42,057 bases of DNA from a virus. This document shows, in pieces, positions 1-28,733 of this stretch; the stretch's first letter is position 1; the number at the start of each line of letters is the position of its first letter. Under the pieces are notes generated by a model that saw only the letters and a program-made list of their open reading frames with translations, was not told where the DNA came from and made no database searches. The translations under genes and the position numbers were made by a program. Where the stretch lies: UHGV virus genome UHGV-0106421; one strand, given 5' to 3'.

Positions 1-49
1 GATTATGCGAGCAGACTCGCACTCCTGCCAGTCTGCTGCAAAAGAAAGG

Positions 50-1222
50 TCAGGCCTTATGGTGGAAATAATCACTCAGGCGGGAAAACATGCCGCCTTC
101 CCCGACAGATTCCAGGGTAACCAGCGGCCAGTGCGCCACCTGTTTATCACGGTCGTAAAGTTCAATTTCCCCTACCCGCTGATGGGCGCTAATTGGCGCG
201 GTGAGCTCTTTACCATCAAGGGTATATTTGGCTTTGATATGTGGAATTTCGGCTTTCGGTAGCACCATCCAGAACTCTTGTTCCGTTCCCAGGTCGATAT
301 TTTCTTTATCGCCATACCAGATGCGTTCCGTTCCGACCTTTTTCCCACGGTGCAAAATTTGCACCGTAGTAAAGTTTTGTTGCCCCCAACGCAGTAATTT
401 TCTTGCCTCTTCCTCACGACCTTTTGCACTGTCAGCCCCCATTACCACTGCAATGAGACGACGCTGCCCATCTACAGCCGAAGCAATGAGATTAAACCCG
501 GCACCAGAAGTATGACCCGTTTTCAGGCCGTCAACATTCATGGTTTTATCCCACAACAACCCGTTACGGTTTTGCTGGGTGATACCGTTCCAGGTGAGAC
601 TTTTCTCACTGTACATATGATAAAACTCGGGCTCGCCGTGGATGATAGCGCGAGAAAGCACAGCTAAATCATAAGCCGAGCTATGCTGGCCAGGTGCATC
701 CAGACCATGCACTGTTTCAAAATGCGTATCCTTGAGATGCAGCTTCTCGGCATAGTTGTTCATCATTTCAACAAACTGCCGTTGCCCACCGGCAATATAG
801 TCAGCCAGAGCAACACAAGCGTCATTTCCGGAATCCACAATTAAACCACGGCTTAAATCACGTACCGATACGCGATCGCCCTCTTTCAAAAACATCAGTG
901 AAGAACCGACAAACACCGGATTATCTTTCGCCCACGCATCGCGCCCCACGGTGACAATATCGTCTGGCGTAATGCGATGACTATCGATAGCGCGATCCAC
1001 GACATAACCCGTCATCAGCTTTGTCAGGCTGGCGGGATTGCGCTGTTGATGCTCATTACCCGCGGTGAGGATCTGACCGGTGGTGTAATCCATCAATACC
1101 CAGGACCCGGCATGAATCTCTGGAGGCTGAGGTGAAAAAGGAATGTTTTCCGCCGCAAAACCAGACGATAAGTTAAAAACGAACAAAGAAGCAGCAATAA
1201 TAAGACGGCGTTTCAACAGCAA
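50..1222 (-). CDS. dacD: D-alanyl-D-alanine carboxypeptidase DacD (PBP6b), host gene
   Basis: 390-aa ORF with N-terminal signal peptide and class-A PBP motifs SxxK (SLTK), SxN (SGND) and KTG (KTGHT); sequence matches E. coli DacD as recalled. Confidence 0.9.
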   Translation of the reverse strand: MLLKRRLIIAASLFVFNLSSGFAAENIPFSPQPPEIHAGSWVLMDYTTGQILTAGNEHQQRNPASLTKLMTGYVVDRAIDSHRITPDDIVTVGRDAWAKDNPVFVGSSLMFLKEGDRVSVRDLSRGLIVDSGNDACVALADYIAGGQRQFVEMMNNYAEKLHLKDTHFETVHGLDAPGQHSSAYDLAVLSRAIIHGEPEFYHMYSEKSLTWNGITQQNRNGLLWDKTMNVDGLKTGHTSGAGFNLIASAVDGQRRLIAVVMGADSAKGREEEARKLLRWGQQNFTTVQILHRGKKVGTERIWYGDKENIDLGTEQEFWMVLPKAEIPHIKAKYTLDGKELTAPISAHQRVGEIELYDRDKQVAHWPLVTLESVGEGGMFSRLSDYFHHKA

Positions 1223-1424
1223 ACCCTCAGGAGTTTCAAATAGCTGTTCTTTTTACGGAAATACTTATGAACTGGCTGGAATAAAGTGCAAGAAAATGTG
1301 ACTACCCTCTCATTTTTATCTGACATGATCTGTTGCCACTCGCTGCCAAATTGTGGCGCTAAAGCTGATTAGCACGGTGATATTTGATACTCTGGCAGAC
1401 AGCAGAAATAACGGATTTAACCTA

Positions 1425-1487
1425 ATGATGAATGACGGTAAGCAACAATCTACCTTTTTGTTTCACGATTACGCGAAACACCCCTGA
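1425..1487 (+). pseudogene. sbcB: Truncated 5' fragment of exonuclease I gene sbcB, interrupted by prophage insertion
   Basis: ATG ATG AAT GAC GGT AAG ... encodes MMNDGKQQSTFLFHDY, the recalled N-terminus of E. coli SbcB, then diverges and hits a stop after 20 codons; divergent to dacD as in E. coli. Confidence 0.6.
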
Positions 1488-1527
1488 GAAGCGCCATGAA
1501 CAAGGGTTTCATGATTTGTGATTTTAG

Positions 1528-1550
1528 TTTGGTACGCAATTTGGTACACA
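1528..1550. repeat. Two direct copies of TTTGGTAC(G/A)C near the left prophage junction; candidate integrase arm-type sites
   Basis: tttggtacgc at 1528..1537 and tttggtacaca at 1540..1550; the same motifs recur next to int at 42015..42057. Confidence 0.4.
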
Positions 1551-2018
1551 ACACAATTTTCACTTCAGCGGGTAGTCATCAAACTCACCATAACGAGCAT
1601 CGTTAATGATGTATGTGATCACCACAAACATCACATCTGGACTAGTTCCGTTTTCATGCGCAGGTATTTGTTCACGCCTCCCTTTCTGCAAATCCTAAAG
1701 ATGAGATTTTGGGGTTTTGGGATATCTTTTATCCTCAGTTCTCTATCCATTATGCAAACCAGTAATGAACCATCACCATGTGATAGTGAGGCATCTGCCA
1801 CGATAAGCGCAGAGAAATGATGCAGTGGTGGGCGGACTGGATTGATGAAAAGGTGGAGTGATCCACCTTAAACACTATCGAAGAGCACAAAGCCTAGTAA
1901 TCCAGTACAAAGCTATGTGTGCCTCAGTTTTGTCTGAGTGTTCTACTGAAAACATAGTAAAATCGGTAACGGCTGGAAATCATTCAATACTCGCACTATC
2001 GAAAGTTCACCAGCCAAT

Positions 2019-2062
2019 CCGCAGCACGTCCTGCATACGGCGTGTCTGCGGTTTTTATTTTT
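2019..2062 (+). terminator. Putative rho-independent terminator facing rightward from the attL side
   Basis: Stem ccgcagcacg / cgtg(t)ctgcgg with one bulge, followed by tttttattttt; ends just before the tail fiber assembly stop codon. Confidence 0.35.
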
Positions 2063-2065
2063 CGC

Positions 2066-2626
2066 TTACATTGTGTCTGGTTTTGTCGGCCACTGAATAT
2101 CCGGAACCCCGGATGTATTTACTGTTTCCAGTGCATCCAGATAATCCAGCCACAAGTTATATTGCGCAAGCTCATCACCTTTCAGCCGGCCAATGGCAGC
2201 CTTTCCTGCCCACTGATGGCTGTTCATGAATTCATTTGCCTGACTGATTTTTGTTTGTTTTTCCATCTCAGCCAGGGTAATAAGCTCACTCCGGGTATAC
2301 TGTCTTGCAGATACCTTACCGTCCGAATAAACCCACCCGCCATAAATATCAATACCTTCAGGAATACTGGCAACCTCTGCCACACTGCACGATACAGGAA
2401 ACAGCGTGGAAACATCTCTGGTTATTGATTTCACAATACCTTCACTGTCATACATTATCTTGAATGTATCGTCCTTAAATAACTGCTGAGAGGTGTACCA
2501 CTCCCGGCCTTCTTCATCACGCAGAATAATGGCACCGAGTTCTGCCAGTAGCTTTTCTTCATCTGAAACAGGCTCAGAAATAACAAAATTTCTCATATCC
2601 ATCATGATAAACCTACCGTTACCCAT
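2066..2626 (-). CDS. Tail fiber assembly protein (Tfa-like chaperone)
   Basis: 186-aa ORF directly downstream of the tail fiber gene; overall Tfa-like sequence; true start probably an internal Met near 2605. Confidence 0.65.
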   Translation of the reverse strand: MGNGRFIMMDMRNFVISEPVSDEEKLLAELGAIILRDEEGREWYTSQQLFKDDTFKIMYDSEGIVKSITRDVSTLFPVSCSVAEVASIPEGIDIYGGWVYSDGKVSARQYTRSELITLAEMEKQTKISQANEFMNSHQWAGKAAIGRLKGDELAQYNLWLDYLDALETVNTSGVPDIQWPTKPDTM

Positions 2627-3690
2627 TGTGTGCCAATAAGCATCTGAAGCGGACGTACATTTACGCTCTGTGCGTTAGCGCTAAAATTGATACCACGAAC
2701 CATTAATCCGGTATCAATTGAAATAAAATTATTCGACGCATAAAGTGTCGAGACGGCCCCCTCCCGTAGCTTAATAACACCTTTTGCTGAGTCTGCGACA
2801 GTGACTGCAATATTTGCATCACCCCCACCATTGAACATGGCATAACCGCTGGCGTCACCAGAGAGGGAAATCTTTCTCGCTGTTGTAAGTTGTGCAACCG
2901 TTCGTTGAGGATTCCTTGCTGTATAAATTTCAATCCAGTCACTCTCAGTTTTTCCGCTTCTGTTCTTAATAAAGACTCGTGGGTTATCTGTCCCATTCAT
3001 GCTGAGCGCAAAACGGGAAGAGTAGAAACTTGTCCCGGCTAAATTGATATGAACATAATTCTGATAGGGTTCAGGGTTTCCAGGATCACCAATTGGCAAT
3101 GAGTAAACATTGGTAATCTCTGTGTTTTCAGAGGTGGCGCCAACCCCGCCAAAACCAAATGCACCAAGTAACATGAGAGCACCCGCAGTATTATCAAAGA
3201 CATTGGACTGCGCGTTCTTTTTAGCCGCTGTACCGGTTCCCAGATAATTCAACATTGAATCAGCGCTATCGCGTGCAAGTAAACTTCTGGCTGCCGATGT
3301 TAAGTCAGTCAGTGCAACTGTATCCACTCCCGTAAAATACGGGAACTTGTTTGCAGCAGTAGTTAATTGAGCGATAGCGGTAAGAGTTGCATCCAGCGGT
3401 TGGGATGTTTTATTCAGAGCGTTAGTGAATGCCGTAATAAACGCATTTAAATCACCGTTATCGAGTACATCAGCATTATTTTTGTTTGCCATAAACTGGG
3501 CTACAGCTGCTGCTACGAAAGTCGCCTGACGCAGAGCCTTATTAACCTGCGCACTGGAAGCTTTACCTGCGGTGAATCCGGATGCCAGCGCCGGAAGCGA
3601 TTCCCAGTCCGTCTGCGTAGTGACGTTTGCATTCTCTGCTGTCGCAAATGGTTTAAAGTTATTTATTGCCATTAGAGTAAAGTCCCCCAT
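2602..3690 (-). CDS. Tail fiber protein
   Basis: 362-aa Gly/Ala/Thr/Asn-rich ORF between baseplate genes and Tfa; start may be the Met at 3672. Confidence 0.6.
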   Translation of the reverse strand: MGDFTLMAINNFKPFATAENANVTTQTDWESLPALASGFTAGKASSAQVNKALRQATFVAAAVAQFMANKNNADVLDNGDLNAFITAFTNALNKTSQPLDATLTAIAQLTTAANKFPYFTGVDTVALTDLTSAARSLLARDSADSMLNYLGTGTAAKKNAQSNVFDNTAGALMLLGAFGFGGVGATSENTEITNVYSLPIGDPGNPEPYQNYVHINLAGTSFYSSRFALSMNGTDNPRVFIKNRSGKTESDWIEIYTARNPQRTVAQLTTARKISLSGDASGYAMFNGGGDANIAVTVADSAKGVIKLREGAVSTLYASNNFISIDTGLMVRGINFSANAQSVNVRPLQMLIGTQWVTVGLS

Positions 3691-4352
3691 GCTCCAACAT
3701 CGAACCCGCCGATGTATTCGTTATCCATGTCAAATCCAAAGAATTTTGTTCCTTCGGACGGTGTTTCGACTGAGGGTGTTTCAACGCCGCCAGCCCATAC
3801 ACCAGCAGCTTTAACGGTGAGATAACCCTGTTTGATAGCGGCTATCAGTTCGAGTGACACATCAGAAATATCAGTCTCGGGAAAAACCCAGACCGATATC
3901 GTCATGTCCTGGTTATCGACGATCTGCATCTTCAGTCCAGAGCCTGCGGTAGCAGCGTCAAGGATGGGAGGCAGAGAGTCGTTCCGACCATCCCAGTTGT
4001 TGATAGCGATTTTCGCTTTCAGAATGATGCGGTACGTCTCATCACTCAGCGTCGTATAGCCAGAATCAGGATCATATGGCCCTTGCCAGATGCCCTGGTC
4101 ATATCCGAGCCCGTCAGTGTCCCAGCTGAAATAAACGCCGCTAATTGGCTGGCTGACTATACGACTACGCCCAATCCACAGGCCGAGGATATCGAGTTGC
4201 ACGCCAACCGCCGTATCGATATCGAAGGCTGTTACAAGCCCTGACATAGTGCTGGACACATCAATCAGCGGGCGGGTGCTCAGATCTATATGGTCAAAAA
4301 AGAGTGGCTTGGTAGCATGGTAGTTAGTGATCAGTTCGGTGTATTTGCTCAT
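3672..4352 (-). CDS. Baseplate/tail protein (Mu gp48-like)
   Basis: ORF directly after the baseplate J-like gene; ATGA stop/start overlap with it at 4349..4352 if the internal Met is used. Confidence 0.45.
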   Translation of the reverse strand: MSKYTELITNYHATKPLFFDHIDLSTRPLIDVSSTMSGLVTAFDIDTAVGVQLDILGLWIGRSRIVSQPISGVYFSWDTDGLGYDQGIWQGPYDPDSGYTTLSDETYRIILKAKIAINNWDGRNDSLPPILDAATAGSGLKMQIVDNQDMTISVWVFPETDISDVSLELIAAIKQGYLTVKAAGVWAGGVETPSVETPSEGTKFFGFDMDNEYIGGFDVGAWGTLL

Positions 4353-5548
4353 GAGGTCACCGTGATAGTGACGTGACTCGCAACGCATGACGCAGATTCG
4401 TCATAAGCAATATCGATATTTCCGCTTGCGACTGAGTCAGAGGATTTGCCGATGAGCAGCTCCTGAATGTCGTAATAGCGAGCACTGCCTCCGCTTACCA
4501 CGCCAAGGTTTGCCGGGGAATAAATACGACTCAGCAGAACGTCATCGCCAATTGCCAGGCCATTTATATAATCGGCAACAGCCTGTTTAATCTGCTCGCC
4601 GATTTGAGAGGTATAGCCGGTAAAAACTTTCAGGGTAATGGCTACGAAAATTGGCACATCGGTAGAGCGCGAAAAACTGATGACGTGTGGATTACCGTAA
4701 GTATCCGGCACCGTGACAGAAGTTTTACCGTAAGTTGCGGTTCCCTGCCCTTTACTCCCCCGGATTGTTTGGGCTATCTCGGTAACATCCCCTCCATCGA
4801 CGATGGCGGAAATAGAGTGTGGCGGCAGCCCGTTGCTGTCGGTTGCCCCAGTGTCGTTCTCATATAGTTTGTGACGTGTCACGCCAGCAACATTAGCGAT
4901 AGCACCGTCGACACCTTCAAACGGTGTGATCGATGGTAGCGCGACGCTTTGCCCCTGCCGAATGCGCAGCTCTGCGTCGGTTTCGGCTGGTGAACCGACA
5001 GTAGCCGCAACTGGATTGGTTACCGACACCCAACCTCGGGTCGGGGTGTTGATAGTGGTAATAGTCCCGGCCAGCGCCGCAACCGAACCGCTATTCGCAC
5101 ATGTGGCCGTCACCAGCACAGTACCATCAACGCCGATCGCTACACTTGCGGGAAAATTCCAGATAATGCCGTTTTTATCCCGTGCGGAGCCATTCGTGAT
5201 AGTCGTGCCTGCCGTACCGGTTAACAGAAGGTCAGCAGTAGAGTTTGTCGCTACTTTTCGCGTGATCCCGTTAATTTTCACATTGTTGCTAAGCGCTGCG
5301 GCCTGCGCTGTCGTCGGTGAAAAAGAGTTGTAGATCTCGATAGCGGTATTGTTAGCGTCATGCACCGCAAGAGCCACCAGCGCGACCATTTGCCCATCTT
5401 TGCTGTCTGGTTCGAGGTAGGCATCACTACCGTAAATCTGCCTGAAATAGCTGGTCAGTGTATCAAGGATTGTCTGGTAATCAGGCGCACTAATCCCCTG
5501 GGCGGTTACCGTTGCCGATAGCCCCAGCGTGTCGAGGTTCAAAGCCAT
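4349..5548 (-). CDS. Baseplate J-like protein
   Basis: 399-aa ORF in the gene order expected for a Mu/P2-type baseplate wedge. Confidence 0.65.
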   Translation of the reverse strand: MALNLDTLGLSATVTAQGISAPDYQTILDTLTSYFRQIYGSDAYLEPDSKDGQMVALVALAVHDANNTAIEIYNSFSPTTAQAAALSNNVKINGITRKVATNSTADLLLTGTAGTTITNGSARDKNGIIWNFPASVAIGVDGTVLVTATCANSGSVAALAGTITTINTPTRGWVSVTNPVAATVGSPAETDAELRIRQGQSVALPSITPFEGVDGAIANVAGVTRHKLYENDTGATDSNGLPPHSISAIVDGGDVTEIAQTIRGSKGQGTATYGKTSVTVPDTYGNPHVISFSRSTDVPIFVAITLKVFTGYTSQIGEQIKQAVADYINGLAIGDDVLLSRIYSPANLGVVSGGSARYYDIQELLIGKSSDSVASGNIDIAYDESASCVASHVTITVTS

Positions 5549-5902
5549 TTATGCCTCGCTTGTTACAGTCGTCTGGCCGTAGATTGTGTCAATGGAGGAA
5601 GTGAAGGTGACGCGACGGCTGGTGCCGTCATAATTGGTATCGAAGGAAAGAATCGACAGAACGCCCGGTGTATCCTGTATGCGTTCGCGTATAGCCAGGA
5701 TGTAGACATCTGATCGCTGCTTCCCAAGCACTGACTGAACATACGGCGTGCCTTCCGTCAGATCGAGAAACCACTGACCGCGCCACAGCTCGAAACGGGT
5801 TTTTACGGCCTGGGCGACACATTCCGGACTGTCGATAAGGAAAGTATCGTCACCCTGGCCGAAAGTGTAATCGCCTTCAGTATCTTCGCGACGGTATCGC
5901 AT
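5549..5902 (-). CDS. Baseplate protein (gp25/GPW or Mu gp46-like)
   Basis: 117-aa ORF tightly coupled between the V-like and J-like genes. Confidence 0.45.
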   Translation of the reverse strand: MRYRREDTEGDYTFGQGDDTFLIDSPECVAQAVKTRFELWRGQWFLDLTEGTPYVQSVLGKQRSDVYILAIRERIQDTPGVLSILSFDTNYDGTSRRVTFTSSIDTIYGQTTVTSEA

Positions 5903-6642
5903 TATTGCGGCCCTCCGGTAGTTCCCCCGCCAGTCTGTACTCCGCCATGTTTATGCGTGGCGACACTGATACCAGAAGCTGTTACGTCATTCGTTACCGT
6001 CACCGGCCCAAGCATCGTCGCAGTACCGCCGCTTTCGCCCATTCCCTGAGACAAGTTGCCATTAATCGTTACGTTGCCGTTCAGCGTGATAGTCGGGGAT
6101 GTGATTGTCGTTCCACCTTCAGCCGTAGCTGTAAGCTGGCCCGGTGTTTTAATGGTGATGTTATGTCCTGCGGCGACTTCTACAAACGCCGCACCATCAT
6201 CGGTTCGCAGCTGCGCGGCGCTGGTACTGATACCGCTGATTTTCCGTGCTTGCGACTGTGGGCCAACGATGGCGAACGCATCAGATAAGTCATGCTGGCG
6301 CGGGTCGACGGTCTCCTGCACGCCGCCGCTCTGCCACCAGAAATCGATGCAACGGTCGGCAAAGAGCAGCAGGCACTCGTCGCCTTCTTTAACCGGAAAA
6401 GTCAGCGTACAACCGCCGCCACGCGGGAAGATAACCGGCACATCCACCAGCGGTTTTAATTCGGTGGAGCCATCGCCAACGATACCGCGAAGCGCTACCT
6501 CTACCGTGCAGGTAACAGTATCAGGATCGAACGACTGAATGATGCCGGGCATCGCTACGCGCATCTGGGTAGACACCGAATCGGCAATGGCCTGCGCGGT
6601 CTGCTGCTCACCGCCGATCTGTGATTGAGTTGGAATTGGCAT
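5902..6642 (-). CDS. Baseplate assembly/spike protein (gpV-like)
   Basis: 246-aa ORF with a Gly-rich C-terminus (GGVQTGGGTTGG); position upstream of the W/J-like genes. Confidence 0.55.
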   Translation of the reverse strand: MPIPTQSQIGGEQQTAQAIADSVSTQMRVAMPGIIQSFDPDTVTCTVEVALRGIVGDGSTELKPLVDVPVIFPRGGGCTLTFPVKEGDECLLLFADRCIDFWWQSGGVQETVDPRQHDLSDAFAIVGPQSQARKISGISTSAAQLRTDDGAAFVEVAAGHNITIKTPGQLTATAEGGTTITSPTITLNGNVTINGNLSQGMGESGGTATMLGPVTVTNDVTASGISVATHKHGGVQTGGGTTGGPQ

Positions 6643-6653
6643 AAAAACCCCAT

Positions 6654-6674
6654 AAAAAAACCAGCCGAAGCTGG
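6654..6674 (-). terminator. Putative terminator hairpin between the tail-operon island and the V-like gene
   Basis: ccagc-cgaa-gctgg hairpin (6661..6674) followed on the minus strand by a 7-nt T run (plus-strand A run 6654..6660). Confidence 0.4.
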
Positions 6675-6853
6675 TTTGGTATCAATTACTAAGCTACATC
6701 AGTGTGAAGTAAGGCTTTTCCGCTGCAATGGCACACATTCACAAGGTGTATTAGGATATGTTTGCAACAAGTAAGCATTAAAAATCAATTTCAGCCATGA
6801 AGCCGCCATAGAGTGGACCTGCACCATCGCATTCTTGACTACAGGAGTAACAA

Positions 6854-7144
6854 ATGGGATTTAGATTTCGCAAAAGAATCCGGATTGCGCCCGGACTCGC
6901 GATCAACATTAGCAAAAGCGGAGTAAGCACTTCGATTGGTGGTAAAGGTTCCACCATTAACATCGGGAAAAAAGGCGTAAAGATGACAAATGGCCTTCCC
7001 GGCACGGGGCTGTCGCATACCACTAACCTTTACTCTCCCGGGAAATCGACAGAAAAAAAACAACTTACTCATAAGCAAAAAATAATTAGAAACATCCTGT
7101 TCGTAATTATTGTGTTTATTATAATTAAAGCTCAATATTTTTGA
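6854..7144 (+). CDS. DUF4236-like small protein with C-terminal transmembrane anchor (moron, opposite to the tail operon)
   Basis: 96-aa ORF starting MGFRFRKRIRIAPGLAINISKSG; AGGAG RBS 7 nt upstream; hydrophobic C-terminus IIRNILFVIIVFIII; AT-rich by eye; own terminator downstream. Confidence 0.55.
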   Translation: MGFRFRKRIRIAPGLAINISKSGVSTSIGGKGSTINIGKKGVKMTNGLPGTGLSHTTNLYSPGKSTEKKQLTHKQKIIRNILFVIIVFIIIKAQYF

Positions 7145-7149
7145 CGCAT

Positions 7150-7180
7150 GCCCGCCTATCTGGCGGGCTATTTTACTTTT
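7150..7180 (+). terminator. Rho-independent terminator of the DUF4236-like gene
   Basis: gcccgcc-tatct-ggcgggc hairpin followed by tattttactttt; overlaps the 3' end of the convergent minus-strand gene. Confidence 0.45.
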
Positions 7181-7503
7181 CGGCAGTCGTATGTTGCATA
7201 CTGACGCGGCGAATCCATGCTGGCTTGCAGCCACTGAGCATTCAGGATTGCTTTACCATTACGGCCAATAAACTCCATTCCTACCCATCGCCCTGGTTGA
7301 TTGGTCGCTAAGCGCCATTCAATTTTGACGTTGTTATAATCACCGTCATTTTTAAGAAATGTCACTTTTTGCGATTCAGGTTTAGCTCCGTTTACGCGAG
7401 CGAAACCATCATCAGCCCAATGGATTTTGAAATCACCACACTGAGAATCAGCAATAGCTTGGAAAGAAAATAATGCTGCAATGATAAAAATTACGAGTTT
7501 CAC
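7168..7503 (-). CDS. Small secreted (periplasmic) protein of unknown function, moron inside the tail operon
   Basis: GTG start at 7503 preceded by GAGG; signal peptide (V)KLVIFIIAALFSFQAIA; two Cys in the mature part; AT-rich by eye compared with flanking tail genes. Confidence 0.5.
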   Translation of the reverse strand: MKLVIFIIAALFSFQAIADSQCGDFKIHWADDGFARVNGAKPESQKVTFLKNDGDYNNVKIEWRLATNQPGRWVGMEFIGRNGKAILNAQWLQASMDSPRQYATYDCRKVK

Positions 7504-7513
7504 GTCCCGTACC

Positions 7514-8578
7514 TCAGTAGTTTGTTTTTTGCATAGCACCAGCATTAACTAAATCACGACTGCCACGCGCAAAACACATCAAATCCATGTACCACGCCTG
7601 ACCTCTGGTGTCGCCAGTATAGTCGATAGCTTTGACGATATAAACGCCATCTGTCGCAATGCTGGCAGCCTGTGACGTTGTGCCGGTCAGTGCGCGGTTG
7701 CCGTTCTCTTCCGTTTCAGTGATACGCCCGGGCGACTGTGCGATTTCGCTATTGCCGAGCGCGGCGCGGTACACCGAAGCCTGATCGAGCTGGATAAGAC
7801 CATTAATGCGGATGTTTGGGTTTATCAGGCACCGCACGTTTACGCCGCCGCCCATTGTCTGTTGCGGCATACCGATCAGGCCAGTATTGGCATTCAACAC
7901 AATGGCTTCGTGAATATATTTATCCTCCGGCACCATCTGGACCTGACCATCCACCAGTTGCCATGTCGCTTTGCACTGCGCAGCAATATTATCCATCACG
8001 TTGCGGCTGGATGAGTAAATCGCGCGGCCACGAGGAAACACGGTATCAGGAAAATCGCCGGTAATGCCCTGTGTCACGCCGAACGCGTTGAAATCCTGCA
8101 TCGTCGCCCGGTGCAGATCCGCAACGGTATAGCCAGCGGCAAGCGTGGTGATGGTAGTCGCGTAGAGGAACGCTTCGTGGTTACTGATGGCCTGAATCAG
8201 CACCCAGGAATCGGTGATGTTGTCCTTCCCGGTGACGGTGAAGCGAATATCACCGTCAAATATCAGGCCGTAGTTCTGACCGTTCACCTGCCCTACCTGG
8301 TCTGGTGAAATCTCCAGGGCGACACCAACCTGGCTCGCATCAACATCCGGCGCTATACCGTCATACCCGGCAATGATGCGAATTTTGGCAAACTCCTGCC
8401 CAAGTATCTTGTTCGTGGTATCGGTCGAAAGGTTGTAAATTTTCACGTTCGCCACGCGCGGCCAGCGTGTGTCTGCCCACTCGATCTGGAACGTGACCTT
8501 AAAGTTAGACAGGGAAACGCCCTGCCCGTTCTGGTCCAACAGTTGCAGCTCAAAATGGCGCATCCAGTTAAGAGACAT
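7514..8578 (-). CDS. Tail/baseplate hub-like protein (Mu gpP or P2 gpD-like)
   Basis: 354-aa ORF downstream of the tape measure and small tail genes; assignment by position and size. Confidence 0.4.
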   Translation of the reverse strand: MSLNWMRHFELQLLDQNGQGVSLSNFKVTFQIEWADTRWPRVANVKIYNLSTDTTNKILGQEFAKIRIIAGYDGIAPDVDASQVGVALEISPDQVGQVNGQNYGLIFDGDIRFTVTGKDNITDSWVLIQAISNHEAFLYATTITTLAAGYTVADLHRATMQDFNAFGVTQGITGDFPDTVFPRGRAIYSSSRNVMDNIAAQCKATWQLVDGQVQMVPEDKYIHEAIVLNANTGLIGMPQQTMGGGVNVRCLINPNIRINGLIQLDQASVYRAALGNSEIAQSPGRITETEENGNRALTGTTSQAASIATDGVYIVKAIDYTGDTRGQAWYMDLMCFARGSRDLVNAGAMQKTNY

Positions 8579-8580
8579 TT

Positions 8581-8886
8581 CTACTCCTGTACGAAAATGA
8601 GGTGGCTGTATGTGCCGAGGTTGGTTTTGGTGGGCTCGTCTGGTGCGCCCTTATCGGTCGCCACCACCAGCGCGCCATCAATGCCAAGCTGTGGATATTG
8701 TCGTAAAAGGTTTACGCCGGTCAGTAGAGGTACGCCAGAGAGAAGCGCGGCACCGCCGCTATCCATCACGTCCATAATCCAGCCAGCCGCATCACGCCAG
8801 ATGATCCTGAGTGTATACGTGGTATTGCCCAGCAAAACGCGGAACTGCTGATTGTCAGGAGAAAGCGGTATTTCGTTAAACTGCAT
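8581..8886 (-). CDS. Tail protein (unassigned)
   Basis: 101-aa ORF tightly packed between tail genes. Confidence 0.4.
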   Translation of the reverse strand: MQFNEIPLSPDNQQFRVLLGNTTYTLRIIWRDAAGWIMDVMDSGGAALLSGVPLLTGVNLLRQYPQLGIDGALVVATDKGAPDEPTKTNLGTYSHLIFVQE

Positions 8887-8887
8887 A

Positions 8888-9490
8888 TCATCCCCCGAAT
8901 GCTGATGTAACGCTTCCGCCCAGCTGGCTCAGCAAGGATTCGTTTGGCGGTGTAGTGGATTTCATCCCGGAATTCTGCACCGCCGATGTGCTGACGCCAT
9001 CCTGCATATCTGATTTATCTGCAACGCTAACGCTCTGCGTCTGCGACATGATCATTTCACGCAGGGTAAGCGTGCAGTTCAGCACGTTCTCGCTGGTTTT
9101 ATCCGTTGTCACCTCGATGGCTCGCACCAGCATATTGCTGTAAACCCGCTTTCCGGTCACTACATCGAACGGCACCCGAGAGGACTGGAGATCCAGTAGT
9201 TGCTGATAGGTCTCTTTCGGGCTAAGTCCGGCGCTGAGGCCGATTGACGATGTATCAATGAAGTCCAGCAACGAACCGCCACCAGCGAAGCCGCATTCCA
9301 TTGTGACTTCGCTGGGGCGCTTATACGCATGATCGGCGATGAAGCCCGAAGCGCTATTCGTTGTTGGCTTCTCCACCGGGTGCTCAGTAATTTCGAGCGC
9401 ATCAGAATGCTTTTCGGAGACGACCACGCTGGGGATCAGCAGGCCAATTCGCCGGGATTGCTGGCGAAAAATCGCTGATAAAATATCCAT
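8888..9490 (-). CDS. Tail protein downstream of the tape measure (unassigned)
   Basis: 200-aa ORF abutting the tape measure stop. Confidence 0.4.
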   Translation of the reverse strand: MDILSAIFRQQSRRIGLLIPSVVVSEKHSDALEITEHPVEKPTTNSASGFIADHAYKRPSEVTMECGFAGGGSLLDFIDTSSIGLSAGLSPKETYQQLLDLQSSRVPFDVVTGKRVYSNMLVRAIEVTTDKTSENVLNCTLTLREMIMSQTQSVSVADKSDMQDGVSTSAVQNSGMKSTTPPNESLLSQLGGSVTSAFGG

Positions 9491-11505
9491 TATCTCGGTC
9501 CTGCGGGGAGTTGCTGGGTTAACTGTGAATTCACGCCCTTTTGACGATCAACAGTCAAACGGGCAGCCTCGCGCGGATCGGAAACGCCGTGGATGTTAAT
9601 ATTCGTTTCCTGCTGAATCACCGGGGCGCTGGTGGGCATGTTGCTCATTACTTTCGGAATGTAGTTACGCGTTTCCTGCGGCATTAACCCCATGCCATAG
9701 CGCTTAACATTCCCGATCCCCCAGTTATATGATGCCAGTGCTTTGCTAAGGTCTCCGCCGTTCTGCCGCAACAGCTGGCTGAGGTACTTAGCTGCGGCCT
9801 GAGCTGACTTTTGCGGGTCGAATACATCGTTTCCGCGAAGGCCCATGTCGCGCGCCGTACCATCCATAAACTGAAACAGACCTTTAGCGCCAGCGCCTGA
9901 AACGGCGAACTGATTACCGCCAGATTCCGTTATGGCCACACTGCGCAATAACCCCTCCGGAAGCCGGTAGAGCTGTTCCAGGTTGGTAAGCATCGGCTGC
10001 ATCCATCCCAGCAGTTCAGAGCCTGCTTTGGTTGGCTGTGGCCGCTTAACTGACTGGCCGAGCTGTTCAGGCTCATCATCACCGAACCAGCCGCGCACCG
10101 TTCGGCCCACGCTGCGAGGATCGAATCCCCAGTGCTCTTTAATCCAGTCGGCGGTACCGTTGGCGCTGTCTGTTACCATCGGCATCGCTGACGGATTTTC
10201 GCTGCCCTGATTTAGCAGCTGTTTGCCTATACTAGCGGCCTGCGCCCAGTTGCCATCTTTTATGGCATTCAGCAAATCAGCGATCATGTTCAGCATCTTG
10301 CCGAACTCACCCATTTGCGAAATGAAGTTGCTAAAATCCCACTTTAGGGACCATGACTTGGGGTCAATACCGAGCAACTTAGCCAGCGCTTTTGTCAGGT
10401 CCGTAACAGTCTTTTTCAGGTCACCAATCATTTTGACGGCCTGATCAATTTCAGTCTTCCATTTCCCCCAGTCAATCAGGCTTTTGCCACCTTCTTTCCA
10501 CGTCTGGTAATCATCCAAGAGCAGACCAAGTGCAATAATAAGCGTCGTTATCATGCCCAAGGGTGATGACATGAAAGCGGTATTTAGCAGCCGCCATGCA
10601 ACCAACAGCCCACTGAACAATGCGATAAGCTGCTGCGTGGCTGGGTTCAGCTTTTTGAACCAGGCGATCACACCCTCAACAGCTTGCCCAGTTCGCCATA
10701 ACACGCGGGTAATCGCGTCACCTGCCCAGAGAATTCCTTTGATGATCTTCGTGATGACCGCTTCAATCTTCGGCCAGTTGTCGAGTATCTGCCTGCGGAA
10801 GTTATCAATACTGCCAGCAAGGCCACCAGCTAGGTTAGAGCCAATCTTGTCTTTCGCCTGTCCAAGCGTCATCGTCAGATTACGCATGGAGGTCATGAAA
10901 ATATTGGACTGTTTAGCCGCTGACTCAGCATTAAAACCAATACGCTTTGCCGTCAACGCGTACTCAGAACTGAGCTGCCCCATCCCTCTGCGCATCGCCA
11001 TCAGCGTGTTTTCATCGATGCCAAGCATCTGCGCGTATTGTTTCGCGCGGTAATACGGCATGTTGTTGAGCTTTTGCCCAACGCCAGTAAAGATGGCCGC
11101 AGTATCACGCATCTTTCCGCTGGCATCGCGGGTCTGGACACCAAGACGGTTCAGGAACCCTTCCGCCCCCGGATTGCTACGCATGAAGCCAGCCAACCCT
11201 TCGAGGGAGGACATGGCCGACTCAGCGCTGGCGCCAGTTTGCGATGCGGCATAGCCCAGCGCTTTGATGCCCTGGACGCTGGCCCCCGTCCGCTGGGATG
11301 CCCAGTAAATTTTATCCAGACCATTCGCGATCTGGGTGGTAAATCCGACAATGCTCAGCGCTGCTCCTTCCACCACCGCGCCGACCTTCAGAACGTTCGC
11401 GGTAACGCCTTTCAGCACTGCTTCAAACTTATTAGCGCCAGCCTGATCGATATCGAATCCCAGCGAAACAAGGAAATCTTTAATCGTATCTGCGTTACCG
11501 CTCAT
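9490..11505 (-). CDS. Tail tape measure protein with C-terminal lytic transglycosylase (SLT) domain
   Basis: 671-aa ORF with hydrophobic central segments; C-terminal SLT-like motifs (ITESGGN, GAKGLFQFM, YNWG). Confidence 0.75.
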   Translation of the reverse strand: MSGNADTIKDFLVSLGFDIDQAGANKFEAVLKGVTANVLKVGAVVEGAALSIVGFTTQIANGLDKIYWASQRTGASVQGIKALGYAASQTGASAESAMSSLEGLAGFMRSNPGAEGFLNRLGVQTRDASGKMRDTAAIFTGVGQKLNNMPYYRAKQYAQMLGIDENTLMAMRRGMGQLSSEYALTAKRIGFNAESAAKQSNIFMTSMRNLTMTLGQAKDKIGSNLAGGLAGSIDNFRRQILDNWPKIEAVITKIIKGILWAGDAITRVLWRTGQAVEGVIAWFKKLNPATQQLIALFSGLLVAWRLLNTAFMSSPLGMITTLIIALGLLLDDYQTWKEGGKSLIDWGKWKTEIDQAVKMIGDLKKTVTDLTKALAKLLGIDPKSWSLKWDFSNFISQMGEFGKMLNMIADLLNAIKDGNWAQAASIGKQLLNQGSENPSAMPMVTDSANGTADWIKEHWGFDPRSVGRTVRGWFGDDEPEQLGQSVKRPQPTKAGSELLGWMQPMLTNLEQLYRLPEGLLRSVAITESGGNQFAVSGAGAKGLFQFMDGTARDMGLRGNDVFDPQKSAQAAAKYLSQLLRQNGGDLSKALASYNWGIGNVKRYGMGLMPQETRNYIPKVMSNMPTSAPVIQQETNINIHGVSDPREAARLTVDRQKGVNSQLTQQLPAGPR

Positions 11506-11682
11506 TGGCCGCTCTCCATTTATCTACCCGGGCGTCGTTATCCTCGCGCATGTCGAGGTAGTCATTGAGAAGCGCGATGCGGCAAAGGTCTACCGCACCG
11601 CTGTTAAGGTCTTTCTGGTCAATATGGAAGGCAAGCGCCGGGCGAAGAATAAAATCTTCACTGCCCGGCAGGCTGTTGAAGG

Positions 11683-12108
11683 TTATTCCGCTAGCGGGGT
11701 GGGCGTCTCGCTGGTAGGGAGTCCTTGCAAAAAATTTCCCAGCGAGTCGGCGACCACCCGCGCCACCAGTTGCAGCATGGTAAGCAGGTCGATATCGTCA
11801 AACGCCATTTCGCCATGCTGGCAGACCGGCACCCAGCCTTTCATGTGCTCGCGTGAAACAACGGAAAGACAGGGGAACAGGATAGCGTCCACGTCGCCAT
11901 CACTCAGATCGGACACAGCATTGGCAATCTTTGGCAGGATGGTAGCCATCGCGCCTTCGGTGTCTTTGCTGCTGATCTTCTCCTGAACGCTCCGGAAGTC
12001 CGAAACCATCCCGGCCAGAACCGGCAACAGCTTGCGGGACACCTTCAGCTGTTCGAAAACGCTGAGCTTTGCGGTGCGATATTTCACGCCTTTAATTTCG
12101 AATTCCAT
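11683..12108 (-). CDS. Tail assembly chaperone (between tube and tape measure)
   Basis: 141-aa acidic ORF in the canonical chaperone slot. Confidence 0.45.
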   Translation of the reverse strand: MEFEIKGVKYRTAKLSVFEQLKVSRKLLPVLAGMVSDFRSVQEKISSKDTEGAMATILPKIANAVSDLSDGDVDAILFPCLSVVSREHMKGWVPVCQHGEMAFDDIDLLTMLQLVARVVADSLGNFLQGLPTSETPTPLAE

Positions 12109-12111
12109 GCG

Positions 12112-12552
12112 TTAAAACTCCCCGAGAAGCTGGTCAATCTTGCCGCAGTCGAATACCCAGGCGACGGTTCCGCCCTCTTTAGCGTTATTGAAATCAGGCT
12201 GTTTCTGGAATGCACACGAACGCGCAGTAGAAATATCACCCGATGCCGTGTTGCGAATGACGATCACGTTATTGCCCCAGGTGGCAGAGGACTGGCTTTG
12301 CGCGTTATACGCCAGAGACAGCTTTTTATTCACCGGGGAGGTTTTGAGTAGCGTCACCGTAATGGTGCCTGACTTATCGGCGTGCAGGCTGTGCATCACC
12401 TCGCCATCGGCACCGATGGTCATGGTGTTTTTGTTGCCGCCCATGGTCTGGGTGATACCTTCCTCAGAGTTCGCAGAACCCTGACCAAGATCGATAACGC
12501 CGGTCGGCCCGGTGAGCGACGCGGTTACATCGAGAAAAGAATAAGTTGCCAT
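12112..12552 (-). CDS. Tail tube protein
   Basis: 146-aa ORF immediately downstream of the sheath gene. Confidence 0.6.
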   Translation of the reverse strand: MATYSFLDVTASLTGPTGVIDLGQGSANSEEGITQTMGGNKNTMTIGADGEVMHSLHADKSGTITVTLLKTSPVNKKLSLAYNAQSQSSATWGNNVIVIRNTASGDISTARSCAFQKQPDFNNAKEGGTVAWVFDCGKIDQLLGEF

Positions 12553-12562
12553 TTATCGCTCC

Positions 12563-13723
12563 TTAGCGAACCACGTTGATCTGCACATCGGCATAATGAA
12601 CTGCGCCAGCCAGCTTACAGGCCACCTGGATTAACGGTGCTTTGCGCGCTTCGCGGTCGGCCTGCGCCTGTTCGGACAGCGGTTGCGCATACACGTAATA
12701 GCCTTTGGTCAGCGTATCGCCGGAATTCAGCTGTCCGATAGGGCCACCATTCCACACGCCAGCAGCTACCAGACCGTTCGTGACGGACTGATCCATGGAC
12801 TGTTCAACGTTGGAAAGCAGACGGGTAACACCGGCATCAGTCTGCGGAATTTTGGTGGTGCTGGTGTAAAGCAGGTTATAGAGGTTGGTCTGAACGTAGT
12901 TCTGCAACCAGTCGAGCCCGTGGCGCTCGTCGAAGAAGTCACCGTTCGCCATGACACCCTGTTGCAGGATCGCCGTGTCGTTGGCGTAGTACACGAACAC
13001 GTTCGCATTCTTCGTATCCACCGCAGCCGCCTGGCCTACCGTCAACGTTTCGTAGGTTACGCTTGGTTCCTGTTTGAACTTCAGGGTAATGGTGGTATTG
13101 CTGCCGTTGAAATTGACAGTAAACGCACGACCGAAAGCAGAAACCGCTGCGTAAGGGCTGCTGGTGGAATACTGAATAAAGGTACGGGCATACTTGCCAG
13201 CCTTTAATTTCGACGCAACATCGGTCGTCGAAGTCGTGCTGATAATCTCGGCGTCGGCAGAGGTCACACCAAAGATACGGCTAAGGCTGGACGCTTCAAT
13301 AAGTTTGGCGACCTCAATCACGTCATCAGCATCAAGCACATCGCCACCAGCGACAACATCATCAGCGACAACCAGCCCATACCAGTTGGTATATTGCAGG
13401 CAGGCATTAACGGCTTGCACGATAGTTTCAGTATCTCCACTCTCGGAAGAACTCAGCGTCTTCGCCCAGCGACCAACATAAACCTGTGTCGGCTTCGGTG
13501 ACTGGCTGAAGAAAACCTGCGCTGCTTTATATTCCGGGCTGTCGACACCGAAGTCTTCGCCAATGTCCTCAATGGAAGCATATAGGCGAGTACGTTCTGT
13601 CACCGGAATGACAGTGGAAGAGCCAAGGATTAGCAATGCGCCGAAGTTACGACCAGTAGCCGCTTTCGGCGAGATGATCACATCAACGTTTACAACGTTG
13701 GATACAGGTAAGCCCTGCGTCAT
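12563..13723 (-). CDS. Contractile tail sheath protein
   Basis: 386-aa ORF upstream of the tube gene; sheath-like size and composition. Confidence 0.65.
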
Positions 13724-13726
13724 AGT

Positions 13727-14290
13727 TTATTCTCCAAAAAAGGTGACTGGCACTTCCACCAGCGATTTGATGCCATACTCGCGGACAACCTTCCGGCGCA
13801 GTCGCACCGTCATGTCGTAACGGCGAACCCATTGCTGGTTGATAAGTTCGGGGAAAGGGGTCAGAGCGGTATAGTCGCCAAGGGATAAACCAAGCGCGTT
13901 CAGCTCAGCATTGTTTTGCGGGACAGATATACCATCGCGAAAACGGGACGCATAAGACATACCAGCCGGACCATAGAACGACGCCATGCACTCGAACGTT
14001 TCATGCCTCCAGAGCTGAGCGCCCTCTTCAGTCTGCCCGATGAATGCAGGGTTGTTATCAATGAGCAACCCGGTAACGCCAAACGCGCACCAGTTCGTTT
14101 CAACGGGTGGCAGTGGCGGCTGATTTTTCTGCCAGCGCGGACGAACCATTCCAGACGGCAAGCCGGAAACATTGCGCATCCACTGGCTTAGCAGCCTGTC
14201 GAGCGCTTCGTCATAAGCCGGATCGCCGCTGGTGGGTGTCAGCCAGCCGCGCTCTGTGCTGGTGTTATTGCTCAATGGGAGTTCCCCCAT
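13727..14290 (-). CDS. Head-tail joining / tail completion protein (unassigned)
   Basis: ORF between head and sheath genes; start placed at an internal Met (MGELPLSNN). Confidence 0.35.
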   Translation of the reverse strand: MGELPLSNNTSTERGWLTPTSGDPAYDEALDRLLSQWMRNVSGLPSGMVRPRWQKNQPPLPPVETNWCAFGVTGLLIDNNPAFIGQTEEGAQLWRHETFECMASFYGPAGMSYASRFRDGISVPQNNAELNALGLSLGDYTALTPFPELINQQWVRRYDMTVRLRRKVVREYGIKSLVEVPVTFFGE

Positions 14291-14654
14291 CAAACGGCAG
14301 TAATTCACAATGAGCCTGGACGAAGCCAGCACCGTAAGCCGTATACGGGTCGACGAATGTCACGCGATAATCACGGTTCTGATACGTCACGATATCGGCA
14401 TCACGGCCAGTCTGCCCCTGCGTCAGCCGCTCAGTTGTCACGATGAGAATCGCGCCGCTGATAACCTGCCCGGCCTGCATGCGGCGGTTTTCCAGGGAGC
14501 GGTCAACAGTAACAACCCCGGCAAACTGCGTTTTAACTTCGCTGTCGCTGCCGATCCCGTCATCGTCCACCGTTTGCGCGCGACGCGTTACCCACAGGTT
14601 GAAGTCGCAAAAATCGGGGTCAAAAAGCACGTCTGTTACATCAAGAGTCGGCAT
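14265..14654 (-). CDS. Virion structural protein (head-tail connector region)
   Basis: 129-aa ORF in the head-tail joining block. Confidence 0.35.
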   Translation of the reverse strand: MPTLDVTDVLFDPDFCDFNLWVTRRAQTVDDDGIGSDSEVKTQFAGVVTVDRSLENRRMQAGQVISGAILIVTTERLTQGQTGRDADIVTYQNRDYRVTFVDPYTAYGAGFVQAHCELLPFDGGTPIEQ

Positions 14655-15195
14655 CTTTATCCCTCACAATATGGGTAATAGCTCTGCGATATTGCCCGGT
14701 GTCGATTAGCGGTTTCACCAGATCGGTTCCAGGAGACTCACCAGCAGCGCGCCGCGCAAGTTCCTCTTTTGCCCCTTTGCGCCCACGGCGTGCGCGTGCT
14801 TCAACGGTGCTATCAGCAAGCGGTGTAAAGCCGGTAATGGTCATGTAACGCCTGACGCCATTCGCGGCCAGCGTTCCGGCGCGGTTAAGCGCTCTTTCCG
14901 CACCCGCCGCATTTCCATCAAGCGCAGCCTGCGCCGCTGCTTTGAGCTGCGGCACCGTCTGTTCCTCTACGGATTTAACGCCGGGGATCAGGTGCGGGCG
15001 TGGGGGTATGTTTTGCGCTGGTGAGCCGTATTCGTTGACGTAACCGATCCCGGCATTACCAAACGGAACATCCTCACGCTCGCTGTCTTCTTCCGGGATG
15101 CCCACCAGCACATCCTTTTTGGTTAGCGACCGGAGCGCATCCAGAATGGCCTGAGCGTTATCAACCCTCGTTGTTACACCACTTTTGAAACTCAT
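14641..15195 (-). CDS. Virion structural protein (head completion/adaptor-like)
   Basis: 184-aa ORF in the head-tail joining block. Confidence 0.35.
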
Positions 15196-15599
15196 AGCTG
15201 GCGACCGCCCGCACCGAACATCGTGATCAGCTGATAAAATTCAGCGCCATATCGGGTGTTATTCCAGAAGCCTGCGTCAGGGTTTAGCGTCGCGCTGGTG
15301 TCATAGCTGACGCTTACCTTGTCAACGGACTTGGAGGACTGAACACCATTGGTTGAGCCACCCGGGCCGCCGACGAGCATTGCCCGGCTATCTGCCGCCC
15401 AGAGCGTCATGTAGTGAGCCACGAACAACTCGACAAAGTACGGAAACAACTCTTTGCCGGTGACGTTTTCGCTCAGCAGCACATCAGCCAGATTCAGACG
15501 AAACTGGATTTGTGCTTCGGGATATTTGGCAGGGTCAGCAAACTGTGGAAAGTCGCGCCGAAAATCACTTACTGTTGGCAGGCTTTGATTCTTTGGCAT
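15192..15599 (-). CDS. Virion structural protein (unassigned)
   Basis: Start placed at the internal Met ([10 protein letters not shown]) to limit overlap with the upstream gene. Confidence 0.35.
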
Positions 15600-15954
15600 C
15601 TTTCGCCCCATTACCGCCAGTCTGGGCGGCAGCAATCTGCGCTTGCAGGCTGTCGTTCTGCTCTTGCAGCTTAAGCAGCGCTTCTCGCAGATCGGCAATC
15701 AACTGATCTTTATCGATAATCTGCTTATCTTTGTCGGCAATCTGAGCTTGCAGGCTGTCGATAATGGGTTGCAGATCATCGGTGTCGCTAATCACGCTTT
15801 CGGAAAGCTCGGAGTGCGCCTGGGTGAACCAGTGCGACGCGACCTCTTCCGGTACGTTATGCCGTCCCCGGCCAAACTCCCTTTTTGACTGATCGCCGAG
15901 CGTCAGCGTAAACGGGGTGTGAACATGGATGGTAACCAGCTTTTCTTTCGCCAT
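15565..15954 (-). CDS. Coiled-coil phage protein downstream of the major capsid gene
   Basis: 129-aa ORF containing a duplicated SLQAQIA heptad segment. Confidence 0.4.
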
Positions 15955-15995
15955 TTTCAGTTCCCTTCTGGCCCTTTTCGGGGCCGTTCTGGTTA

Positions 15996-16937
15996 TCAGA
16001 TACCGTCCACGTAGGACAGGGTTTCTTTGTACACTGGCTCAACCGCACCGAGCTTGCCGTAGTAGGTCGCAATCTGATACAGACCGCGATACTGGACAGG
16101 AACGCTCTGCAACGGCACCAGCGGATAGCGCACGTATTTCTTGTCGTTGGTGTAGGCGATCATACGGTCTTTACCGCCAACCCCACGCCCTTTCAGCCAT
16201 TTGACCGCTTTGATTTCAAGCGGAACGCCGTTCTGGTGGAAAGCGATAGTGTTCACAGCCAGATAGGTCAGCAGTGACTGGTTACCCGCTTCGGAAACCT
16301 TACGGCTCGCCAGCAGTGAATACTGCTCTGGCGGAATGCGCAGATCAGAAGGCACGATGGAATAACCGGATGCTGCCCAGGCATTAGACAGAATGCTGTT
16401 CACGCTATCGAGGATCTCGTCGTTGGTTGAGTTCGCCCAGGTCTTCGGCGCGTTGTTCAGCGTCACACCGACGAGGTTTGCCAGACCTTTCAGGCCGAGT
16501 GCGTCATCACCGATGTAAACCTGCTCGTCGTTGTCCATCTGCCATTTGAGCTGCATCCCGTCGTACTTCTGGGTATCAATCGGGCGGCCTACCTGCTGAG
16601 CAGCTGCCAGCTCTACAACGGTCCAGCCCAGTTCCATACCCCAGAGGTTCAGTGGATTGCCGTCTTTGCTGATATCCACGTTCACGCCAGCAATAGCGGT
16701 GGAGTCTTTGCCTACCCAGTTTTTACCATTCGGATTTGCACCAGTACCCGCAGCGGCGAAGCTGGTATTCGTCCAGCTGGAAATGTCATCTGCGATAGAC
16801 ACGTCTTCACGCAGTTGAATATCTCGGGTCCAGGTGTACCCCACCAGAGGCAGGTTCAGCGTCTGGTCGAGTCGCTCCAGCTCCCCGATGAGAAAGGCAC
16901 CGGAGCTATCTACGGTTGCCTGATCAAAAGTAATCAT
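15996..16937 (-). CDS. Major capsid protein
   Basis: 313-aa ORF following the protease/scaffold and decoration-like genes; Mu-like head gene order. Confidence 0.55.
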   Translation of the reverse strand: MITFDQATVDSSGAFLIGELERLDQTLNLPLVGYTWTRDIQLREDVSIADDISSWTNTSFAAAGTGANPNGKNWVGKDSTAIAGVNVDISKDGNPLNLWGMELGWTVVELAAAQQVGRPIDTQKYDGMQLKWQMDNDEQVYIGDDALGLKGLANLVGVTLNNAPKTWANSTNDEILDSVNSILSNAWAASGYSIVPSDLRIPPEQYSLLASRKVSEAGNQSLLTYLAVNTIAFHQNGVPLEIKAVKWLKGRGVGGKDRMIAYTNDKKYVRYPLVPLQSVPVQYRGLYQIATYYGKLGAVEPVYKETLSYVDGI

Positions 16938-16948
16938 TTGTCTGTTCC

Positions 16949-17452
16949 TTAAATCTTCCAGGAGATTTCTGCATTACCGTTAGCGTCACCGGCACCAGTA
17001 AATTCAGCATTCGCGAGTACGACAGTTTTCCCTTCCACGCTTGAAGAGCAGAAACCACCCAGCGGCACTTTAATAGATTCATCAGTGGAGACAACAACGT
17101 ATACCGGGTCACCTTTTTTGATGGTGCTGGCATCAAAGTCAGAACCAAGGTTAACGGTCATGTAACCGCGCTTCATTGCATCGCCCGGGAAGTTCTTATC
17201 CGTCCCCACCTGGCGAACCATGTCCGGCTGTGATGTGGTCGGATACGGACGAACGTAGATCCCCTTCACTTTGTCGGAGGTGTCACCGTCCGCCAGCGGC
17301 ACAAAAAAGCCGTCAGCGTCGTATTTGCCAGCCAGACCATAGGCAGCGAAGGCGTTAGCGGATTTAAGGATCACCGGCTCGACGGTTAAATCCTGCGGGC
17401 GAGAGATAGCCCCGGCAATGCCAACAGGCATCCGGTACAAATATGCAGTCAT
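16949..17452 (-). CDS. Head structural protein (possible decoration protein)
   Basis: 167-aa ORF immediately upstream of the major capsid gene. Confidence 0.4.
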   Translation of the reverse strand: MTAYLYRMPVGIAGAISRPQDLTVEPVILKSANAFAAYGLAGKYDADGFFVPLADGDTSDKVKGIYVRPYPTTSQPDMVRQVGTDKNFPGDAMKRGYMTVNLGSDFDASTIKKGDPVYVVVSTDESIKVPLGGFCSSSVEGKTVVLANAEFTGAGDANGNAEISWKI

Positions 17453-17456
17453 TGGA

Positions 17457-18689: not shown

Positions 18690-18703
18690 GGTTTACCTGC
18701 GAT

Positions 18704-22417: not shown

Positions 22418-22419
22418 AC

Positions 22420-22971: not shown

Positions 22972-22994
22972 TTTTTGTTGCCGTAAGAGTTTAT

Positions 22995-23983: not shown

Positions 23984-24014
23984 CATTAAATTGACTTTGT
24001 GATTTGCAAAAAAA

Positions 24015-25243: not shown

Positions 25244-25249
25244 GTCTTA

Positions 25250-28531: not shown

Positions 28532-28533
28532 CG

Positions 28534-28722: not shown

Positions 28723-28733
28723 ATCAATCCCCG

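Follow-up and report, generated by a model that had tools for sequence, protein, structure and literature searches.

The window analysed here, that is, the whole stretch of 42,057 nucleotides from the virus genome UHGV-0106421, begins in host chromosomal DNA and passes into a prophage. The left flank is formed by the host gene dacD (50..1222, minus strand; an ORF of 390 aa), which stands in the place where it is annotated beside sbcB in K-12 and in lysogens. Positions 1223..1424 (plus strand), between dacD and sbcB, include the 5' untranslated region of native sbcB and are 100% identical to K-12. The native sbcB promoter presumably lies within this interval, where we infer its position, and is now parted from the body of its gene. 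The start of the native gene follows as a displaced stub at 1425..1487 (plus strand), in which an ATG at 1425 opens a frame that reads MMNDGKQQSTFLFHDY, runs on through AKHP and ends with a TGA at 1485..1487. Sixteen of its codons belong to sbcB, as seen by comparison with the N-terminus of K-12 SbcB (MMNDGKQQSTFLFHDYETFG), and the remaining four (AKHP) are derived from the phage. No Pfam domain was detected in this 20-codon stub (1425..1487), and the equivalent mini-ORF in free phages reads MTDTDKQPTFLFHDYAKHP followed by a stop codon.

The end of the host DNA was located by a megablast search with window positions 1223..1900 as the query against 5,426 complete E. coli genomes, among which those with an uninterrupted sbcB give the endpoint. 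Query bases 1..251 match, and identity to sbcB stops at 1473, the first base of codon 17. The initial annotation had placed a prophage inside the 5' end of sbcB, after codon 16, and had read the ORF at 1425..1487 as derived from sbcB; the alignment bears it out on both points. The core of the left attachment site (attL), TTTCACGATTACG, occupies 1461..1473 (13 bp, plus strand) and comprises codons F13-H14-D15-Y16 and the first base of E17.

To the right of the core lies the P' arm of the attachment site (1474..1640, plus strand), which is kept in all nine attL and attP sequences aligned. It contains two arm-type integrase sites, TGGTACGC at 1530..1537 and TGGTACAC at 1542..1549. The motif TGGTACRC occurs five times in the 42 kb compared with 1.66 occurrences expected, and four of the five copies (1530, 1542, 42018 and 42041) are on the plus strand about 90 bp or less from the prophage ends. 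These repeats at both ends of the prophage are retained in diverged relatives of the integrase, and the arm-like repeats mentioned in the initial annotation are real. The attachment site is not of the tRNA type, given that ARAGORN detected no tRNA gene anywhere in the window. The interval 1223..2100 yielded no Rfam match, and the stretch from the stub to the first tail gene contained no intrinsic terminator; the lone plus-strand candidate (2097..2116) is located inside the tail-fibre assembly gene.

Some 590 bp between attL and the first tail gene (1474..2063) are devoid of a convincing gene. The region is 92.9% identical in the Stx phages 2851 and 1717 and 91.7% identical in mEp234, and it is unannotated in those phages; only its first ~180 bp are conserved across all relatives. 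A 43-aa ORF on the minus strand (1560..1691) looks like the 3' remnant of a humD/umuD-like gene. The last ~25 codons of this ORF (1563..1640) vary at every third base among attachment modules of the 2851 type, and phage HK140 has a complete UmuD-like gene whose end falls at this very point. Hence a variable cargo gene seems to end within the P' arm.

Prophage body and integrase module

The prophage body occupies 1474..42057 and extends 164 bp past the window, with a core-to-core length of 40,761 bp when the end position is taken from L104, a Logan contig of run ERR1190794. The initial annotation had the far right end of the prophage outside the window; in fact nearly the whole prophage, including the integrase gene (int), is inside it. 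The prophage is a lambdoid mosaic with a contractile-tail structural module. The tail genes that were expected to follow the arm-type repeats do so, as indicated by Pfam matches to Caudo_TAP (2066..2626), DUF2612 (3672..4388) and Baseplate_J (4349..5548), all on the minus strand. The structural module (2066..24000) encodes a contractile tail and baseplate, with a DUF1073 portal, DUF2213, a DUF3383 sheath and Baseplate_J, and is 94% identical to Citrobacter phage Omnitron and ~85% identical to Salmonella phage SEN34. The lambdoid early region includes N, CI (an S24 repressor), CII, O, DnaB, NinB, an antirepressor (ANT), Q, a holin, Rz and RecT. We saw no stx or oacB genes in the prophage.

The right end carries the integration genes. 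The integrase (40829..42007, minus strand) is a tyrosine integrase of the 2851/Sf101/mEp234/HK544 type with 392 aa, and its N-terminal arm-binding domain (Arm-DNA-bind_3, 64.8 bits) and C-terminal catalytic domain (Phage_integrase, 61.6 bits) match the arrangement of lambda Int at the level of domains. A small helix-turn-helix protein of AlpA/HTH_17-like type, encoded at 40657..40848 (plus strand), is a candidate excisionase; its matches to Phage_AlpA (E = 0.003) and HTH_17 (E = 0.008) are both weak and below the curated cut-offs, and its counterpart in mEp234 is annotated as similar to excisionase. The candidate gene is convergent with int, and the 3' ends of the two genes overlap by 20 nt. 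The start of the P arm (42008..42057, plus strand) contains two arm-type sites, 42018..42025 and 42041..42048, and the window end cuts through a third at 42051..42057.

A similar prophage at the same site is present in E. coli strain S1, where dacD is followed by tail genes, early genes, int, an sbcB annotated as full-length, and then tsuB and tsuA. Among the 5,426 complete E. coli genomes the best match reached 95% identity over 85% of the query, so the source genome is not one of them. Eight contigs with an identical integrase are mosaics that match the window exactly only around int. The contractile-tail structural module, the lambdoid early region and the 2851-type integrase, found together here, show that this integration module is passed among phages whose virions are quite unlike one another. 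E. coli O112ab:H8 (CP062910; contigs L002 and L004) has the same attL and attR sites around a P22-like prophage, not one of myovirus type, with a head-binding tailspike and an antirepressor-like protein of the P22 AR C-terminal-domain kind. This prophage is a further illustration of module exchange at the sbcB site.

The attachment core and sbcB at the right junction

We compared attB of K-12, attL of the window and three other lysogens, attR of eleven lysogens, and attP of the phages mEp234, HK140, HK544, EC.P3 and Sf101. The sole stretch common to attB, attL, attP and attR is the core at 1461..1473. To the left of it, attB and attL share ...CAATCTACCTTTTTG, and attP and attR share ...CAACCTACCTTCCTC; to the right, attB and attR continue as AAACCTTTGG..., and attP and attL as CG(A/C)AA(C/T)ACCCCTGAGAA... 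Because host and phage flanks switch at the 13-bp core, strand exchange took place within 1461..1473. The crossover, which the initial annotation had left unfixed while proposing an alignment to an uninterrupted sbcB and a search for a duplicated core, is hereby confined to these bases. The core is duplicated at the dacD-side attL in the window and at the sbcB-side attR in L104, a layout matched by strain S1. An attP rebuilt from the left half of attR and the right half of the window sequence is contiguous, at 94–98% identity, in the free phages mEp234, HK544, HK140, EC.P3, E212 and Sf101, and the DNA over the int 5' end and attP is 94–99% identical to phages of the 2851 type. The genomes of mEp234 and HK544 bear the annotation "prophage attachment site (type 2851)" at this position.

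Reverse-complemented, the core in the window equals the 13-bp attP that has been published for phages 2851 and Sf101, CGTAATCGTGAAA (PMC4159516). Integration of Shigella phage Sf101 in the sbcB 5' end was shown by PCR (PMC4159516), and sbcB is one of four standard Stx-phage sites scored in O157 surveys (PMC8309913), in keeping with the earlier remark that the gene is a recognised site for lambdoid and Stx phages. The active site of exonuclease I (ExoI) includes Asp15 and Glu17 as metal ligands (PMC3675492), and the rebuilt SbcB described below keeps both residues. The target was probably chosen because the bases of the core encode an invariant catalytic motif, which would keep attB conserved.

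In attP and attR the core is immediately preceded by the sequence ATG ACA GAC ACA GAT AAA CAA CCT ACC TTC CTC, which is in frame with it and reads MTDTDKQPTFL-FHDY. At attR it is continued by the host codons ETFGTHPALD... to give an ORF of 474 codons, one codon below the native length. The in-frame restoration that had been suggested as a check is thus found at the level of the ORF, with a phage ATG and 11 codons fused in frame to the host codons. In the free phages mEp234, HK140, HK544, EC.P3 and Sf101, attP reads ATGACAGACACAGATAAACAACCTACCTTCCTC followed by the core; since the surrogate 5' end is contiguous with the core in these free phages, it is phage-borne.

The window stops 165 bp before the attR core, and the claim for the present genome rests on L104 being the same prophage. 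L104 encodes exactly the DUF551 protein of the window (39100..39750), is 100.000% identical to window positions 34100..42057 over 7,958 bp with 0 mismatches and no gap, and extends 2.7 kb further. Beyond the window it contains an ATG 132 bp past the window end, then MTDTDKQPTFLFHDYETFG, an intact 474-codon sbcB, tsuB and tsuA. In window-equivalent coordinates the surrogate sbcB start is at 42189 and the attR core at 42222..42234, as read in L104; the continuation of the P arm is also present in L004. The RNase_T domain scores 108.4 bits in the rebuilt protein (residues 12–187) compared to 108.8 bits in the native one (13–188), and the Exonuc_X-T_C score is the same in both.

The same arrangement is widespread. 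Besides L104, sbcB linked to attR was intact in all 12 complete loci that we extracted, with pN/pS values of 0.03–0.09 for these 12 genes relative to K-12, a divergence that mostly predates lysogeny. A gene for a 474-aa ExoI lies 181 bp from int and divergent from it in each of the eight long contigs with an identical integrase. Of the 5,426 complete E. coli genomes, 582 (~11%, about one in nine) contain a contiguous attR junction, and the int 5' end is likewise present in 582. Among the matches listed, RefSeq names the junction-bearing gene of the lysogens sbcB, exodeoxyribonuclease I. In FORC_031 int is cut by IS100 and the sbcB ORF is still intact.

Integrase relatives, control of the rebuilt gene and competing readings

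Relatives of the integrase in IMG/VR at 94, 90, 74, 73, 71, 70 and 59% identity all have a start codon 179–183 nt from the int ATG. It is followed by 10–11 surrogate codons that vary in sequence and, after these, by TFLFHDYETFG and sbcB genes belonging to other hosts; the surrogate N-termini include MADTDKQP, LNNSEQQP, VKNESNQP, LKNDCEQP, LKNDLVQP, LKNDREQL and MSNEIQK. These 59–94% relatives also retain the three arm-type sites, as well as several sequence blocks that precede the start codon. The conservation of start codon, frame and spacing over such divergence argues that restoration of sbcB is selected. No such start or surrogate motif was found among IMG/VR integrase relatives of ≤57% identity, which presumably use other sites.

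Two further loci show variations of this arrangement. In a MAG of an uncultured Enterobacteriaceae from rabbit gut (L024, 6050..6400), a fossil attR consists of an intact sbcB with a TTG start and the surrogate N-terminus MNNSAQQPTFLFHDY, adjoined only by a fragment coding for the integrase N-terminus and by a YhgA-like transposase gene; here the phage-derived 5' end of sbcB has outlived the prophage. In the free-phage attP upstream of the 73%-identical integrase (L053, IMG/VR 3300013307_000035), the mini-ORF reads VKNESNQPTFLFHDYETLLFKPRQD followed by a stop codon, and identity to sbcB extends two codons beyond that of the E. coli module (through E and T). The core may be longer in this lineage.

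How the junction is built, that the surrogate end comes from the phage, and that the ORF is intact in a contig identical to the prophage are direct observations, and we regard it as very probable that 1425..1560 is the attL of a complete lambdoid prophage with a phage-supplied sbcB start, the intact sbcB ORF being rebuilt at attR. On this reading the tyrosine integrase recombined at the 13-bp core in sbcB codons 13–17, which is the published "2851-type" attB. The incoming attP brought its own ATG and 11 codons (MTDTDKQPTFL), mimicking SbcB residues 2–12, directly upstream of the core, along with a 181-bp stretch of phage DNA that the divergent int gene shares. Integration stranded the native promoter and the first 16 codons at attL as the 20-codon stub, and fused the phage-borne start at attR to codon 13 onward, giving an intact 474-codon sbcB with the whole DnaQ-type nuclease domain. 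Transcription of the rebuilt gene from the phage-derived upstream DNA, and the production of active ExoI from it, are what this arrangement would predict.

The initial annotation read the locus differently, with the prophage truncating exonuclease I after about 16 codons in a case of negative lysogenic conversion that would make the lysogen effectively an sbcB mutant. The native frame is indeed broken at codon 17 with a stop at 1485..1487, and papers call the sbcB site "disrupted", but we consider this reading very improbable given that L104 has, at attR, an intact sbcB of 474 codons whose start is supplied by the phage, that the 12 other complete loci are intact as well, and that the score of the nuclease domain is unchanged. 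Insertional inactivation leaves no intact target gene in the lysogen; here an intact sbcB is found at the same locus. Since the sbcB ORF is rebuilt, the suggestion that loss of ExoI changes recombination and phage sensitivity in the host finds no support. At the other extreme, the MTDTDKQP-type 5' end might be a natural sbcB allele unrelated to phages, with a prophage beside sbcB and not within it. The native sbcB of Pantoea anthophila, which has an identical run of 28 nt, CAACCTACCTTCCTCTTTCACGATTACG, and no integrase nearby, could be cited for such an allele. We reject it as scarcely credible, because free phages carry the ATG, the 11 codons and the core within attP and continue into phage DNA, not into sbcB. 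A host allele is also at odds with the contiguous attR junction and the int 5' end, each found in 582 complete E. coli genomes, and with the native stub and its promoter, which the window has at attL. In P. anthophila LMG 2558 (L022, 7496..7523), dacD-like and type VI secretion genes lie upstream of the native sbcB, and the 28-nt match could be a trace of the origin of the surrogate end or a coincidence in a strongly constrained motif.

It is also conceivable, if unlikely, that the frame is restored and sbcB is nevertheless functionally altered, being silent, weakly expressed or differently regulated in lysogens. A promoter scan and a looser hexamer scan of the 181 bp that precede the surrogate ATG revealed no consensus sigma-70 promoter. 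Identical scans gave none upstream of native sbcB (1223..1424) either, a region that scores no better, and for this reason the negative result carries little weight. The 181-bp region is common to the divergent int and contains three arm-type sites and, on the opposite strand, an extended -10 element (TGtTATAAT) directed toward int, ~45 nt from the surrogate ATG and outside the window (about 3846..3854 in L004). Since int is transcribed from the att side, its promoter must lie within the 181 bp shared with the rebuilt sbcB, and TGtTATAAT is a plausible candidate for it; if so, sbcB and int would share a compact divergent control region holding the Int arm sites. The first 8–9 residues of the rebuilt SbcB differ from the native ones, which may be added in favour of altered function. 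Against it, the ORF, start codon, frame and spacing are kept in relatives down to 59% identity and beside decayed prophages, and blocks upstream of the start are also conserved; such conservation would be hard to explain were the rebuilt gene useless.

Known systems and biological meaning

The Stx2c phage 2851, the serotype-converting phage Sf101, and mEp234, HK544 and HK140 resemble the prophage described here in having the identical 13-bp core and the same arm-type repeats, and their integration module lies at the same place in the chromosome, between dacD and sbcB. At the protein level the integrase is 99% identical to those of IMG/VR contigs taken as Sf101 (38,742 bp), HK544 (40,155 bp) and HK140 (40,710 bp). 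The difference lies in the rest of the genome, which has a SEN34/Omnitron-like contractile-tail module here and a Stx short-tailed, P22-like or siphovirus body in the 2851-type phages.

Attachment sites that restore their target gene are known from icd, where phage 21 and e14 use the 3' end, and from phages and islands that duplicate tRNA 3' ends, as discussed in Campbell's reviews. As in the module at sbcB, a diverged copy of the target gene's end stands beside the core in the phage, and integration swaps this end and leaves the gene intact. However, it is the 5' end that is replaced here, not a C-terminal tail with its stop codon, and the phage must therefore also supply a start codon, a ribosome-binding region and a promoter. 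In negative lysogenic conversion, exemplified in Staphylococcus aureus by Sa3int phages in hlb and by L54a in geh, no intact copy of the target remains. These phages likewise insert into a protein-coding gene by means of a tyrosine integrase; the difference is that an intact ORF is rebuilt in the present case.

Full-text literature searches, the scope of which did not extend to the original phage 2851 paper (Strauch 2008), found no statement that the sbcB frame is restored. The site, core and integrase are already published and annotated in GenBank, restoring attachment sites are a long-known principle, and the locus does not represent a new kind of system; a possible change in ExoI levels is the only part of it with potential for novelty. 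The immediate consequence is a correction, as surveys that score sbcB as "occupied" or "disrupted" could make lysogens pass for exonuclease I mutants. The locus is also a clean example of target-gene restoration by a phage at the 5' end, on the promoter side as well, a harder task than restoration at a 3' end, and the integrase lineage has kept this arrangement while diverging to 59% identity.

These observations lead us to a more speculative suggestion, which we put forward tentatively and consider rather doubtful, namely that the swap is not neutral. The phage cassette, which has 181 bp in common with the int promoter and three Int arm-binding sites, replaces the native promoter, the 5' untranslated region and the first 8–9 residues of SbcB and could place ExoI under phage-influenced control. 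If this were true, the level of ExoI might be altered in lysogens or, upon induction, at the time that Int and Xis bind. It would affect ~11% of sequenced E. coli and relatives in other Enterobacterales, with possible effects on the processing of ssDNA ends, on recombination or on ssDNA-based defence systems.
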